Below, piece by piece: positions 11,132 to 62,041 of a DNA stretch of 64,000 bases (position 1 is the stretch's first letter; the number at the start of each line of letters is the position of its first letter). The stretch lies in the NCBI RefSeq assembly GCF_057098645.1, contig NZ_CM169472.1, one strand, 5' to 3'. Made by a program: the position numbers and the translations under genes. Under the pieces are notes generated by a model. The model was not told the DNA's origin and made no database searches. It saw nothing but the letters and a program-made list of their open reading frames with translations.

Positions 11132-11272
11132 TTCGGGCATGTTTTGATTGTAGCCGAAAACACCCTTCCTATACTGAGCGCACAATAAAAAATCATTTAC
11201 ATGTTTTTAACAAAATAAGTTGCGCTGTACTGTGCGCGCAACGGCATTTTGTCCGAGTCGTGAGGTACTGAA

Positions 11273-17585: not shown

Positions 17586-17945
<360 letters not shown>

Positions 17946-29665: not shown

Positions 29666-30294
29666 TAATGCCCCGCCAGCAGATGGTGGTCGAGCGCAAA
29701 ATGTACCAGTTCAATGGTGCTATGGCAGTTCAGTTTTCCCAGCACATTGGCGCGATGCACATGTACCGTTTTATGACTGAGTTCGAGTTTAAAGGCGATC
29801 TCTTTAACGCTGTCTCCTTTGACCAGTAAATCAAACACTTCACGTTCTCGTGGGGTGAGAATTTCCAGCGCCTGGGCGGGTTGCCCGCCGCCGCGTAAAG
29901 CCCGAATCGCATCGGCACAGAGATAATGCCCGCCCAGCCCGACCGAGCGCACCGCCTGTACTAACTCTTCCGGCCCACAGCGTTTGGTTAAATACCCGCT
30001 GGCACCGGCATCCAGCGCGCTTTGCACAAAGGTTGGCGCGTCATAAATGCTAAGAATAATGGCGCGAAATTGCGGTTTTTGTGCACGCAGGCGCTTAAGC
30101 AAACTGAGGCCGTTTTCGTCCGGCATGGCAATATCAATGACGGCAACATTGACGTCATCACGGATTAATGCCGACCATGCCTGCGCGGCACTACTGTACT
30201 GACCAATGACCTCCAGATCGTCTTCCAGAGAGAGTAATTGTGCGAAGCCAGAGCGCACCACCACATGGTCATCCACCAGCACTACCCGAATCAT
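29665..30294 (-). CDS. UhpA-like response regulator (NarL/FixJ family, LuxR-type HTH), 209 aa
   Basis: MIRVVLVDDHVVVRSGFAQLL... receiver domain with Asp in VAVIDIAMPD; C-terminal HTH ...KEIAFKLELSHKTVHVHRANVLGKL. Confidence 0.87.
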   Translation of the reverse strand: MIRVVLVDDHVVVRSGFAQLLSLEDDLEVIGQYSSAAQAWSALIRDDVNVAVIDIAMPDENGLSLLKRLRAQKPQFRAIILSIYDAPTFVQSALDAGASGYLTKRCGPEELVQAVRSVGLGGHYLCADAIRALRGGGQPAQALEILTPREREVFDLLVKGDSVKEIAFKLELSHKTVHVHRANVLGKLNCHSTIELVHFALDHHLLAGH

Positions 30295-35092: not shown

Positions 35093-35616
35093 GGTCTGCC
35101 TGATGTTTGTGGAATCGAGGGGCATAGTATACCTGAAGCAGGGTAGGGATGTTTTACGAAAGTTGTCGCGATGTTGACAAGAAGAGAATGGAAGAGAGGC
35201 CAGGACATCTTTTTAATAGAAATAGCAATGATATTATATTCACTGTAAATATTTTTAATTTTTATTTATAGATGCCGGTTATTATTTTTACTGATTTGGT
35301 TGAACTGCCAAAAATTGAATTGCTTAAAGTTCATTGTTTATTGATACATTATTTATTTGATTTGTTGTTTTGATATTTTCAGGATCTATGGTTCAAAATT
35401 AATGATTTCATTAACGTGTTGAAATACAGTGTTTTTGTCAGCCTATTCTTTGTGTGTATAGATGTTTTTATATATGTCCACAATCGGACTTAGGGGAAAG
35501 AATAATTGAACCATTCCTCTATAACGCCGCATAATCGTAAACGCGAAACATAAGATGTTTTCTATGCATTGATAATTGATGGATCAACTTATTACGTCCC
35601 TGAGGAGGGATGACAA

Positions 35617-48921: not shown

Positions 48922-49731
48922 TCAGGATTTGCTGAGTTTTTCTGATTTTTCCATACACTTCGTCATCGCTTCGATCACTGCGGCACGGAAGCCTTTCTCT
49001 TCCAGTACGCGTACCGCTTCAATGGTGGTGCCTCCCGGTGAGCAGACCATATCTTTCAGTGCTCCCGGATGTTCTCCCGTTTCCAGCACCATTTTTGCGG
49101 AACCCATTACCGCCTGAGCGGCAAATTTATACGCCTGAGCGCGTGGCATCCCGCCCAGCACGGCGGCGTCGGCCATCGCTTCGATAAACATAAATACGTA
49201 GGCTGGCGAAGAACCGCTCACACCGACCACCGGGTGGATCATCGGCTCAGCAATCACTTCCGCTTCGCCAAAGCAGCGGAAAATATTCAGCACATCAGCG
49301 GTATCTTCTGGGGTTACCAGCGCGTTTGGCGTTACGGAGGTCATCCCGGCATTAACCAGCGCGGGAGTGTTCGGCATGGCGCGGATAATTTTCCGGTCAT
49401 GGCCCAGCGCGCGGGCAAGCTGGTCGAGTGTGATACCTGCAGCAATAGAAACGACCAGAGAGTCTTTATTCAGGCTGGAGGTGATTTCGCTAAGCACTTT
49501 AATCATGATGCCAGGTTTAACGGCGGCAAAAATGATGTCAGCGATTTGCGCCACTTCTTGCGCCGATTCTGCGGCGTTGATGCCGAACTGGTCATGCAGG
49601 GCGGCGACTTTATCCGGGGAGGGGGTGTATACCCAGATTTGCCCTGGAAGCACCTGACCGCTGGCAATCAGACCGCCGAGAATGGCTTTTCCCATATTGC
49701 CGCAGCCAATAAAACCGATTTTCTTTTCCAT
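48922..49731 (-). CDS. proC: Pyrroline-5-carboxylate reductase ProC, 269 aa
   Basis: [42 protein letters not shown]...; the ORF track extends to 49839. Confidence 0.95.
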
Positions 49732-49850
49732 TGCCTCACTCCTGCCGTGAAATTCATTGTTTTGATAATCGCTGGCAGAAGCATAAACAGAACTATGCCG
49801 GAAGGCAAAAGCGCGACACAATAGAGGATTACCCAACAAAGGATGACTTT

Positions 49851-50309
49851 ATGACAATTTGGGTGGATGCCGACGCGTGTCCCAATGTAATTAAAGAGAT
49901 TTTGTATCGCGCGGCGGAACGTATGCAGATGCCGCTGGTACTGGTAGCAAACCAGAGTTTACGCGTGCCGCCATCGCGATTTATTCGTACGCTGCGCGTC
50001 GCGGCAGGTTTCGACGTTGCCGATAACGAAATTGTCCGGCAGTGTGAAGCGGGCGATTTGGTGATCACCGCAGATATACCTTTGGCTGCTGAAGCCATCG
50101 AGAAAGGCGCTGCGGCGCTTAATCCGCGCGGTGAACGTTACACGCCAGCGACCATTCGTGAGCGCCTGACGATGCGCGATTTTATGGATACCTTACGTGC
50201 CAGTGGGATCCAGACCGGCGGACCAGATAGCCTTTCACAACGTGACCGCCAGGCCTTTGCCGCGGAGCTGGAGAAGTGGTGGCTGGAAGTGCAACGTAGT
50301 CGTGGCTAA
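49851..50309 (+). CDS. yaiI: UPF0178-family protein YaiI, 152 aa
   Basis: [35 protein letters not shown]...; the ORF track extends upstream to 49731. Confidence 0.9.
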
Positions 50310-50440
50310 ATGTAATTTATTATTTACACTTCATTCTTGAATATTTATTGGTATAGTAAGGGATGTATTGAGATTTTCACTTTAAGTGGAATTTTTTCTT
50401 TACAATCGAAATTGTACTAGTTTGATGGTATGATCGCTAT
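50310..50440 (+). promoter_or_regulatory. aroL control region: TyrR boxes and a TrpR operator-like site
   Basis: TGTAATttattaTTTACA (50310..50327) and TGGAATtttttcTTTACA (50387..50404) fit TGTAAA-N6-TTTACA; tGTACTAGTTtgatggta (50413..50430) resembles the TrpR operator; -10 tatgat. Confidence 0.7.
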
Positions 50441-50491
50441 TCTCATGACACCGGCTTTCGCCGCATTGCGACCTATTGGGGAAAACCCACG

Positions 50492-51016
50492 ATGACACAA
50501 CCTCTTTTTCTGATCGGGCCTCGGGGCTGTGGTAAAACAACGGTCGGAATGGCCCTTGCCGATTCGCTTAACCGTCGGTTTGTCGATACCGATCAGTGGT
50601 TGCAATCACAGCTCAATATGACGGTCGCGGAGATCGTCGAAAGGGAAGAGTGGGCGGGATTTCGCGCCAGAGAAACGGCGGCGCTGGAAGCGGTAACTGC
50701 GCCATCCACCGTTATCGCTACAGGCGGCGGCATTATTCTGACGGAATTTAATCGTCACTTCATGCAAAATAACGGGATCGTGGTTTATTTGTGTGCGCCA
50801 GTATCAGTCCTGGTTAACCGACTGCAAGCTGCGCCGGAAGAAGATTTACGGCCAACCTTAACGGGAAAACCGCTGAGCGAAGAAGTTCAGGAAGTGCTGG
50901 AAGAACGCGATGCGCTATATCGCGAAGTTGCGCATATTATCATCGACGCAACAAACGAACCCAGCCAGGTGATTTCTGAAATTCGCAGCGCCCTGGCACA
51001 GACGATCAATTGTTGA
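50492..51016 (+). CDS. aroL: Shikimate kinase II AroL, 174 aa
   Basis: [38 protein letters not shown]... Confidence 0.96.
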
Positions 51017-51056
51017 TTTTCGAGCGCCTATACTTAACGTTCATCCCGTGAAATAA

Positions 51057-51257
<201 letters not shown>

Positions 51258-58897: not shown

Positions 58898-61800
58898 TTA
58901 TTTCACTGCAAACGCACTTTCCAGTTCGCTGTAGCCCAGGCCGTTGATCTTTTTCACTTTGATCTGCACCGGAATACGCTCTTTCATCGCTTCTACGTGG
59001 CTAATCACACCGATGGTTTTGCCACTGGCGTTCAGGGCATCCAGCGCATCAAGGGCGGTATCCAGCGTTTCGCTATCCAGCGTGCCAAAACCTTCATCAA
59101 GGAACAGCGAGTCAATACGCGTTTTATGGCTGACCAGATCTGAAAGCGCCAGCGCCAGCGCCAGACTGACGAGGAAACTTTCGCCGCCAGAAAGGGTACG
59201 GGTGTCACGTACCGCATCTGCCTGCCAGGTATCAACAACCTCGACTTCCAGCGCTTCGCTGGCTTTGCGCTGTAACAGATAGCGCCCGTGCAGTCGGGTA
59301 AGTTGCTGATTAGCGAGATGGACTAAATTATCCAGCGTCAGCCCCTGGGCAAACTTGCGGAATTTATCGCCCTCTTTGGAACCTATTAGCGAATTCAGAT
59401 ATCCCCAGTCCTCAACCTGCTGCGTCATTTGAGCAATTTGCTGCATTAAGGTTTGTTGTTGCTGACGGTTATCTGCATCCTGCTTCAGCTGCTGGCGAAT
59501 CTCGCCTTGACTCGTGGTGTTTTCACGCAACTTTTGGTGAGTTTGCGCTAACTCTTGCTGAATCTGCTCCACCGTCACAGTGAGAGCCAACCCGTCAGGT
59601 CGGTGTTGCTGATGCTGTGCCAGCGTTTCTGCTGTCTGAGTGACCAGCGTTTGCGCCTGACGGCGCTGGTTTTCCAGATTCTGCTTGAGCTGTTCCAGCT
59701 GCGTTAGTGTTTGTTCATCCATTAGCGCCGCAAGGAACGCCTGCTGATCGTCAAAGACGCTGGCCTGTAGCGCGGTGTCAAACTGCGCCTGGGCTTTTTG
59801 CAGACTTTGCGCCGCCAGAACGTCCTGTTGCTGTAACGTCTGCTGCTGGCTGTGTAATGCGAGACATTGTTCATGTACCTGCCGCCAGTTTTCCAGTACC
59901 ACAGTTTCTTCGCAGTGCGGGAGTTCATCACTTTGCGGCAACGTTTCCAGAATCGGCGTCAGCTGCTGAATACGGTTTTGCAGCGCAGTTAATTCGTTCT
60001 GGCGATGCTGCCAGCTCTGCGCTTCTTGTTGACGTGTCGCCAACCAGCTCTCTTCTTCATCTTCCTGTGGCACTGTCAGTGCATAACCCGCCAATGCCGT
60101 TAAGAGTTGCTGCTGGCGTTGTTCAATTTGCTGTTGATACTGGATAATTTGCTGATTATGCGCGGCAATCTGCCCTTGTAATTCATGCCGTTGGCTGAGT
60201 AACCGCAGCTGGCGTTCGTGCTCATCTTGTGCATCCAGCCACGGTTGAATATCGTCCTGTGGCTGCAACGTGATATTGAGGCTGGCCGTGACGGCTTGCC
60301 ATTGTTGAGTAAGTGCTTGCTCATCTTGTCGGAGGCTTTGCGCTTCGTTTTCATCACGCTGAAGCTGCTTTGTTAAGGCGTCCAGTTGCCCACGTAGCGT
60401 CGCACCTTCTTCACCGAGCTTTTTAACTTCGTTTTCCAGCGCCAGTAATCGAGACTGATTAACACCAGGCTCCAGCGCCTGATACGCCTCGACCGCCGGG
60501 TGGCTGGTGGAACCACAAAGTGGGCAAGGCTGACCCGCCTGTAACTGTGCACGTTGAGCTTCCAGCGTTTTGATGCGCGCTTCCTGCTCGCAAATGGTTT
60601 TGACATCGGCAAGTTGCTGCGTCTTTTCTTTATAACGCTGGCGCATTTCGTTAAGTGCGGCATTACGTTGCGTCTGTTCCAGAGTGACATTCTGGATAGT
60701 GACCATTAACTGCGCCAGACGTTTTTGTTGGGGAACAATCTGCCCATGCAGCGCGACCAGGCGCTGACGCAGTGGGCGTTGCTCGGCATGTTGCGCCAGG
60801 GCGCTAGCAACTTCATCGGCGGTTAACGTCAACGTGATCGCCGCAAGCGTATTAAGTTTTTGCTCAGCATGGGTTAACTGTTGCTGCCATTGCCGCAGAT
60901 GCTCGCGATCGCTGGTTTGTTGGGAGAACTGCGCACGCCAACCCGCCAGTTCGTTGTTCCACTGACGGAAGCGGTCGTGTTCCTGTAACCAGGTATTCAG
61001 GCTTTGTTGCTGCTGCTGTAATTCTGCTGACTGCTTCGCCGCGTGGTGGCGAATGCTCGCGCGAAGCGCCATTGTGCTCTGTAAGCGAGTATTTACTTCT
61101 TCAATCTGCTGGCGAGTATGCGCCAGCGCCGCGCTGTGTTCTGCGATGCGTTCCCAGTGCGGACGAAGATTTCGTGCCGGTTGTGCCAGACTGAGCGCCG
61201 CCAGTTGAGGTTGCGCTTTTTCTTCTTCGGCTAACGCCTGTTGCAAGGCCTGCTGACGGCGGCTGGCTTCTTGCTGCAATTCGTCCAGACGCGTTAACCA
61301 GTTTAGTGATTGTTGTTCTTGCTGCTGCGCGGTAAGTAACAGTTTTTCTTCGTCAGTAAGTACCTGCAAACTCGCTGTCAGCGATTGCACTTGTTCTGGC
61401 GTGAGCAACGCGACGCCGCTGGCCTGTGCTTGCAGCTTCTCCAGCTCAGTGCGGGCCGATTTGTGCTGCTCAAAAACCATCGCCGAGATTTGCCCGTAGA
61501 TTTCAGTGCCAGTTAACTCCTCGAGCAATTCCGCGCGTTCTTTGGGTTTGGCATTCAGGAAGGCAGCAAATTGCCCCTGCGAAAGCAGCATCGAACGGGT
61601 GAAGCGCCCGTAATCCAGCCCGGTTAACGTCGCTGTCAGTTCCAGCTTATCTTTCACTTTGTCGGCGAGAATTTTGCCGTCGGCGCAGCGCGCCAGCTCT
61701 ACGCGTGGCACCTGCAAATTACCGTCGGGTTGGTTACGCGCCCGATTCTGGCTCCAGAACGCGCGATACGCTTCACCTTTCACTTCAAACTCCACCTCCG

Positions 61801-62041
61801 CCAGACATTCAGCGGTATCGCGGGTCATGAGATCATTTTGCGATTGTGAAACGTTAGAGAGACGCGGAGTTTCGTGATACAGCGCCAGACAAATGGCGTC
61901 CAGCAGGGTAGTTTTCCCCGCACCGGTTGGGCCGGTAATGGCAAACAGCCCGTTGCTGGCGAACGGCTCGCGGGTGAAATCAATCTTCCATTCGCCTTTT
62001 AATGAGTTCAGGTTTTTCAGGCGCAGGCTGAGAATTTTCAT
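58898..62041 (-). CDS. sbcC: Nuclease SbcCD subunit C (SMC-like ATPase), 1047 aa
   Basis: [55 protein letters not shown]...; long coiled coil with central CPLCGS zinc hook; C-terminal ABC signature. Confidence 0.97.

Follow-up and report, generated by a model that had tools for sequence, protein, structure and literature searches.

Which regulators control aroL in this genome, and from which sites do they act? The initial annotation placed at 50310-50440 of the window (the whole 64,000-nt stretch of DNA that was analysed) an aroL control region with two TyrR boxes and a TrpR operator-like site, and it named scans with TyrR and TrpR matrices as the check. We conclude that the region is very probably the promoter-operator of the aroL(-yaiA-aroM) unit, with a sigma-70 promoter, three TyrR boxes and one TrpR operator predicted from the sequence and acting by the published mechanism. 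It is a well-characterised regulatory region, already known. Repression of aroL(M) by both TyrR and TrpR in E. coli had been published (PMC5343134), and the sites were appropriately offered as supporting annotation rather than as novelty. The value of the present analysis lies in a correct annotation, which supplies exact coordinates for the promoter and its operators (three TyrR boxes and one TrpR site), and in the observation that a tool-free reading is able to recover a real, experimentally characterised operator set.

The locus and its promoter

The locus had been named correctly, since RefSeq shows yaiI followed by aroL. Of 5426 complete E. coli genomes, 5425 match region 50200-50600 with identities of 95-100%; O157:H7 and many further strains are identical to it (100%). 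The source strain is a non-K-12 E. coli. Gene order in the neighbourhood is adrA, proC, yaiI, aroL, yaiA, aroM, ppnP. The yaiI-aroL intergenic spacer (50310-50491) is 182 bp long and has 35% GC, with values of 26-35% across the region. It differs from that of K-12 MG1655 at a single position, 50363 (A here, G in MG1655), which lies immediately 5' of the weak TyrR box 2 and outside the 18-bp cores; the two sequences agree in every box, in the TrpR site and in the promoter hexamers. Earlier studies reportedly described the K-12 aroL operator as three TYR R boxes with a single TrpR site (DeFeyter et al. 1986, Heatwole & Somerville 1992, Lawley & Pittard 1994). The genes and the expression signals are as follows.

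49731-50309, plus strand: yaiI open reading frame (ORF list; RefSeq yaiI annotation in identical DNA)
50307-50309, plus strand: yaiI stop codon TAA, 1 base 5' of TyrR box 3
50406-50411, plus strand: aroL -35 hexamer TCGAAA (sigma-70 consensus scan)
50426-50434, plus strand: extended -10 TGgTATGAT, with TG before the hexamer at 50429-50434 (sigma-70 scan)
50440-50442, plus strand: predicted transcription start, placed 6-8 nt downstream of the -10 hexamer
50479-50484, plus strand: Shine-Dalgarno-like GGGGAA for aroL (direct reading; GGGGAA or GGAGAA kept in all aligned species)
50492-51016, plus strand: aroL coding sequence, shikimate kinase II, 174 aa (ORF; RefSeq 'shikimate kinase AroL')

The sigma-70-like promoter matches consensus at 9 of 12 positions with a 17-bp spacer, and it is the only match in 50150-51100. 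We searched the same DNA for other control elements. There was no terminator-like site between yaiI and aroL, and the IHF consensus WATCAANNNNTTR had no match with at most one mismatch in 50310-50491. In 50200-50600 no Rfam family was found beyond a chance-level GcvB match (15.5 bits vs a gathering threshold of 42, E=0.37), and therefore no riboswitch or leader RNA. Lawley and Pittard, in 1994, reportedly considered looping between the boxes, with a possible IHF site.

Two minor observations belong here. A 16-codon upstream reading frame (50445-50495) begins some 4 nt downstream of the predicted transcription start, and its TGA stop overlaps the aroL ATG (ATGA). It was considered as a leader peptide and rejected: its ATG is ACG in E. 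albertii and is absent in Citrobacter and Superficieibacter, so that the frame is probably not a real leader peptide. Elsewhere in the window, the REP-type repeat cluster naRNA4 (Rfam RF02564) is present on the minus strand at 17646-17923 as three copies in tandem, with scores of 69.6-90.2 bits; these copies are the only Rfam matches at gathering level in the window.

Two strong TyrR boxes upstream of aroL

The TyrR box consensus is the palindrome TGTAAA-N6-TTTACA, which gives 12 scored positions. A strong box has at least 10 matches of 12 and a weak box fewer than 10, and an invariant G-N14-C (G2 and C17) is needed for TyrR binding (PMC4374768). Two boxes had been claimed for the spacer, and both were found, with one and two mismatches respectively.

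50311-50328: TyrR box 3 (distal, strong), TGTAATTTATTATTTACA, 11/12, G-N14-C present
50387-50404: TyrR box 1 (proximal, strong), TGGAATTTTTTCTTTACA, 10/12, G-N14-C present

Box 3 is the sole consensus match with one mismatch in the 64-kb window, and box 1 is one of four with two mismatches. The two boxes are 76 bp apart from start to start, and box 1 ends 1 bp before the -35 hexamer. A repeat search that used no motif recovered the same pair, as a 22-nt direct repeat (82%) spaced 76 bp.

To score the boxes independently of this locus, we built a symmetric TyrR matrix from eight strong boxes (aroF, which contributes two, tyrP, aroP, mtr, aroG, tyrR and folA), with aroL excluded. The operators were located in MG1655 promoter regions, and matrix variants were made with or without four weak boxes. 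Box 3 scored 21.0-21.2 bits (rank 1 of 63,979 window positions) and box 1 scored 14.6-17.0 bits (rank 2-3 of 63,979). Known boxes scored leave-one-out gave 12.8-20.9 bits when strong and 6.6-7.5 bits when weak, so that the TyrR scan proposed as a check, at 21.2 and 17.0 bits, bears out both boxes. Taken alone, box 1 is not significant window-wide against the top scores of shuffled windows (mean about 14, 95th percentile about 17.5).

Three sites in the window have at least 10 of 12 matches together with G2 and C17, and two of them lie here, 76 bp apart. Of 2000 windows simulated with a Markov model, 0.65% held a pair of such sites no more than 100 bp apart. Because the arms of the TyrR box and the spacer are both AT-rich, we also shuffled the 182-bp spacer itself with its dinucleotides preserved, and two separate strong boxes arose in 1 of 20,000 shuffles (0.005%).

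TyrR-like sequences are also found elsewhere in the window. The third site with a strong-box sequence, 61080-61097 (TGTAAGCGAGTATTTACT, 10/12 with G-N14-C), lies inside a 1047-aa minus-strand ORF (58898-62041); it is most likely a chance match, since 64 kb should hold about 1.7 sites of this kind. The TyrR-like matches at 35455-35472 and 11184-11201 lack the G-N14-C pair. The first of these falls in an AT-rich, 490-bp divergent intergenic region (35126-35616), bounded by ORFs of 335 aa on the minus strand and 962 aa on the plus strand. The TyrR-like matches of that region (35455-35472, 35463-35480 and 35253-35270) are without the invariant C17 or G2, and several near-matches to the IHF consensus occur there as well; the TyrR-like matches look like an effect of AT-richness rather than TyrR sites.

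A weak box between the strong boxes

A third TyrR box, which the initial annotation did not list, is found between the other two.

50364-50381: TyrR box 2 (weak), TGTATTGAGATTTTCACT, 8/12, G-N14-C present

With 7.5 bits, box 2 is the third-best match to the TyrR matrix in the spacer (rank 24-51 of 63,979 in the window), a score at the level of the known weak boxes (6.6-7.5 bits leave-one-out). Box 2 starts 23 bp (2.19 helical turns) upstream of box 1 and 53 bp (5.05 turns) from box 3, and it thus lies beside a strong box on about the same face of the helix. A spacing of 23 bp between strong and weak box is common to aroL, aroF, tyrP and aroP, and the probability of a site this good at this exact position is about 0.002-0.003. 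Within E. coli, the N6 spacer of box 2 varies between GAGATT and AAAATT. In four other species box 2 is not conserved: the two Citrobacter match 9-11 of 18 positions, which is background, and none was detected in Superficieibacter. Among the five species compared, the weak middle box therefore appears confined to E. coli. The site at 50364-50381 is presumably 'box 2' in the numbering of Lawley & Pittard 1994. That study (J Bacteriol 1994) reportedly described three boxes at aroL, of which 1 and 3 were essential and 2 dispensable.

A TrpR operator-like site over the -10 region

A TrpR operator is an 18-bp palindrome akin to GTACTAGTTAACTAGTAC, both halves of which have a CTAG core. The candidate at aroL fills the spacer between the -35 and -10 hexamers.

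50414-50431: predicted TrpR operator, GTACTAGTTTGATGGTAT, matching GTACTAGTTAACTAGTAC at 13/18 positions (9/9 in the left half and 4/9 in the right)

The string given earlier, tGTACTAGTTtgatggta, covers 50413-50430, and the full 18-bp TrpR-type site covers 50414-50431. The assertion that a TrpR-like site overlaps the -10 region is confirmed: the site overlaps the extended -10 (50426-50434), covering its TG (50426-50427) entirely and the -10 hexamer TATGAT by 3 nt. The two halves are very unequal. The left half, GTACTAGTT, matches at all nine positions and has CTAG; the right half, TGATGGTAT, matches at four of nine and lacks it. Known TrpR operators match the consensus at 14-17 of 18 positions, compared with 13 of 18 at aroL. 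The sequence GTACTAGT occurs once in the 64 kb, in the aroL TrpR site.

The TrpR matrix was built from four sites only, the trpO, aroH, trpR and mtr operators, with aroL excluded. As an 18-mer, the site scored 14.5 bits on this four-site matrix (rank 2 in the window), and known operators scored 15.5-21.4 bits leave-one-out; its score was reached in 18% of shuffled windows. As a 24-mer, it scored 20.3 bits (rank 1), with known operators at 17.0-20.2 bits leave-one-out, and none of 200 shuffles reached it. The TrpR scan proposed as a check was thus favourable for the 24-mer and fell just under the range of known operators for the 18-mer. When the spacer alone was shuffled by dinucleotides (20,000 times), a TrpR match of at least 13 of 18 appeared in 0.5%. 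As the four-site matrix is small, the sequence by itself makes a good, though not an overwhelming, case for TrpR.

One other site in the window scores as well. A near-palindrome at 29703-29720 (GTACCAGTTCAATGGTGC) equals the aroL site in TrpR matrix score (rank 1-2). It is located within coding DNA, close to the 3' end of a minus-strand ORF of 209 aa that adjoins one of 513 aa, and it is probably a chance match.

Conservation of the sites across genera

Orthologues of aroL were sought by scanning a genome collection with the coding pattern GGNCCNCGNGGNTGYGGNAARACNAC (GPRGCGKTT). Among the matches listed, four were usable Enterobacteriaceae aroL loci (L030, L050, L057 and L108), from four species; the matches listed were otherwise largely P-loop genes of GC-rich Actinobacteria and Elusimicrobia. 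The AroL proteins are 93% identical to that of the window in E. albertii, 72-74% in two Citrobacter and 57% in Superficieibacter electus. In E. albertii, box 3 is identical to the window (18/18) and the TrpR site matches at 17 of 18 positions. For the more distant species the comparison with the window is as follows.

Citrobacter (two species): spacer outside the sites 49-54% identical; box 3 16-17/18; box 1 15-16/18; TrpR site 17/18
Superficieibacter: spacer outside the sites 29% identical; 10/12 at the place of box 3; 11/12 at the place of box 1; TrpR site 17/18

In E. albertii, Citrobacter and Superficieibacter, the strong boxes and the TrpR site thus persist while the surrounding DNA diverges. 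All four other species (4/4) have a box with 9-11 of 12 matches at the place of box 1. The geometry is also kept. Across the five species the strong boxes are spaced 76, 76, 75, 75 and 74 bp, and the distance from box 1 to the TrpR site is 27, 27, 28, 28 and 27 bp. Two strong boxes at 74-76 bp and a TrpR site are therefore conserved out to Superficieibacter.

The TrpR site calls for some care, as it lies over promoter elements. The TATG core of the -10 is conserved in all aligned species, and the TrpR site could owe part of its conservation to the -10 and extended -10 that it overlaps. All five species nevertheless retain GTACTAG(T), the left half, E. albertii with one T-to-C change at its eighth base. 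Because this half sits in the little-constrained promoter spacer, an operator is favoured over mere promoter conservation. Independent matrices, chance controls and cross-genus conservation support the prediction that the boxes behave as TyrR boxes and that the GTACTAG-containing site behaves as a TrpR operator. The cross-genus pattern is in line with a published regulon reconstruction in which both regulators control aroL, TyrR in 10 Enterobacteriales genomes and TrpR in 4 (PMC5343134).

Which regulators act, and at what

The control of aroL by TyrR is well documented. Knock-down or mutation of tyrR raises aroL expression in E. coli (including bioRxiv 10.64898/2025.12.20.695731), and aroL is up 4.7-fold in a Y. 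pestis tyrR mutant. The part of TrpR is less settled. The dual repression assumed in the initial annotation is stated for both proteins in the literature (PMC5343134), but its TrpR half met with no trpR effect in a 2025 preprint, where a CRISPRi single-cell screen and a P_aroL reporter found tyrR alone to regulate aroL, with no non-additive interaction between tyrR and trpR (bioRxiv 10.64898/2025.12.20.695731).

These data raise the question of whether the TrpR-like sequence is a working operator in vivo at all; its conservation might reflect promoter function, with aroL under TyrR alone. Beyond the preprint, this reading draws on the 4/9 match of the right half-site, on the 18-mer score slightly under the leave-one-out range of known operators, on the overlap of the 3' part of the site with TGgTATGAT, and on the RegPrecise-type reconstruction, where TrpR controls aroL in only 4 genomes (PMC5343134). 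It does not explain why GTACTAG(T), in the promoter spacer, is kept in five species including Superficieibacter, where background identity is about 29%, nor the uniqueness of GTACTAGT in 64 kb. Genetics and footprinting are also said to have shown TrpR binding and an effect of tryptophan on aroL that needs tyrR+, which the design of a tyrR knock-down, or rich medium, could mask. We regard control by TyrR alone as unlikely.

A TrpR operator with a modest role is the reading we prefer. The contribution of TrpR is predicted to be weak and conditional, the left half-site alone being canonical, and the null result for trpR in the 2025 preprint fits both a degenerate right half-site and such a role. 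Because the right half-site is degenerate, repression by TrpR would depend on TyrR at box 1, 27 bp upstream. Lawley and Pittard reportedly found in 1994 that the effect of tryptophan on aroL requires tyrR+, and reportedly saw sensitivity to an insertion of 4 bp placed between the TrpR site and box 1.

If aroL is governed by TyrR alone, as the 2025 CRISPRi data suggest, the conserved GTACTAG element, kept at a constant 27-28 bp from box 1 across genera, could serve another purpose than as a physiological TrpR operator, for example as an unrecognised contact for the TyrR hexamer or RNA polymerase or as the site of another regulator. We hold this to be very unlikely.

A different possibility concerns the TyrR boxes, which might mainly act as a roadblock to transcription reading through from yaiI rather than on the aroL promoter. 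Box 3 does begin one base past the yaiI stop codon, the yaiI frame ends inside box 3 in some E. coli, and the scan for an intrinsic terminator-like site in the DNA separating the two genes was negative. Box 1, however, abuts the -35 hexamer, the TrpR site overlaps the -10, the distances from boxes to promoter are conserved, and the geometry is that of standard occlusion, also seen at aroF, all of which makes a roadblock highly improbable as the main function. Finally, a chance origin of the boxes in an AT-rich spacer, without regulatory role, could appeal to the low GC content of the region (26-35%) and the AT-rich arms of the consensus, to matches with three mismatches that are no more frequent in the window than in shuffles (32 vs 23.8 +/- 4.7) and to good-looking sites inside genes such as 61080-61097, but it is effectively refuted, and left with next to no probability, by the composition-matched shuffles (1 in 20,000), by the conservation of boxes and spacing across genera while the flanks diverge, and by a location directly upstream of an experimentally placed TyrR regulon gene.

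Proposed mechanism and comparison with known operators

Strong boxes bind TyrR dimers alone and weak boxes depend on a strong box next to them, and tyrosine with ATP turns TyrR into a hexamer in contact with several sites (PMC4374768). At aroLM and aroF, Tyr-mediated repression is described as a block of RNA polymerase by the TyrR hexamer (PMC10170061). Relative to the predicted transcription start, the sites in the window are centred at -121.5 (box 3), -68.5 (box 2), -45.5 (box 1) and -18.5 (TrpR). On this arrangement, TyrR dimers would occupy the strong boxes, and when tyrosine and ATP are available a TyrR hexamer would engage boxes 1, 2 and 3 together, bending or looping the AT-rich DNA of about 35 bp between boxes 3 and 2. 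The complex would cover the DNA up to the -35 hexamer and deny access to RNA polymerase. Tryptophan-bound TrpR on the operator in the spacer and -10 would add a smaller repression.

A close parallel is the aroF-tyrA operator, which shares the three-box layout and the described hexamer block (PMC10170061). Its outer boxes are 75 bp apart, compared with 76 bp at aroL; the spacings are 52+23 bp at aroF and 53+23 bp at aroL, so that an adjacent strong/weak pair at 23 bp is found in both. Boxes start at -164, -112 and -89 from the ATG in aroF (locus L003) and at -181, -128 and -105 in aroL. The order of the boxes differs: strong, strong, weak at aroF, where the weak box is proximal, and strong, weak, strong at aroL, where it is in the middle. 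Unlike aroL, aroF is without a TrpR operator.

TyrR boxes and a TrpR operator occur together at one other promoter, that of mtr, which is co-regulated by both proteins. It has a strong and a weak TyrR box upstream, spaced 30 bp compared with 23 bp at aroL, and its TrpR operator, GTACTCGTGTACTGGTAC, lies near the core promoter. The roles differ: mtr is activated by TyrR and has TrpR as its dominant repressor, whereas at aroL TyrR is the dominant repressor and TrpR is minor (bioRxiv 10.64898/2025.12.20.695731). At trpO, the operator of trpEDCBA, as at aroL, the TrpR site overlaps the -10 region, and the trpO half-site GAACTAGTT shares the CTAG core with the aroL left half. However, trpO is a near-perfect palindrome (17/18), whereas the aroL site (13/18) has a degenerate right half without CTAG, and much weaker autonomous TrpR binding than at trpO is therefore predicted.

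Natural variants within E. coli

We compared six E. coli sequences chosen across the identity range. Substitutions fall in the spacers of the boxes or between the sites, and not in the box arms. Neither the pattern of conservation nor the natural variants described here change the current understanding of TyrR/TrpR regulation.

Two kinds of variant touch box 3. The yaiI stop codon is polymorphic in E. coli, being TAA, TGA or CAA (region 50307-50315; loci L136 and L137). Where the codon is CAA, yaiI runs on for two more codons to a TAA inside the left arm of box 3, and its coding sequence therefore overlaps the operator. In E. coli 18AR0366 (L138, 2180-3000), an IS1A element has inserted between boxes 3 and 2 and duplicated a 9-bp target, TAGTAAGGG, equivalent to 50354-50362 of the window. 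The insertion puts about 0.8 kb between box 3 and the other two boxes. The IS1 and stop-codon variants are potential ready-made test strains for the model of a TyrR hexamer that loops the DNA.
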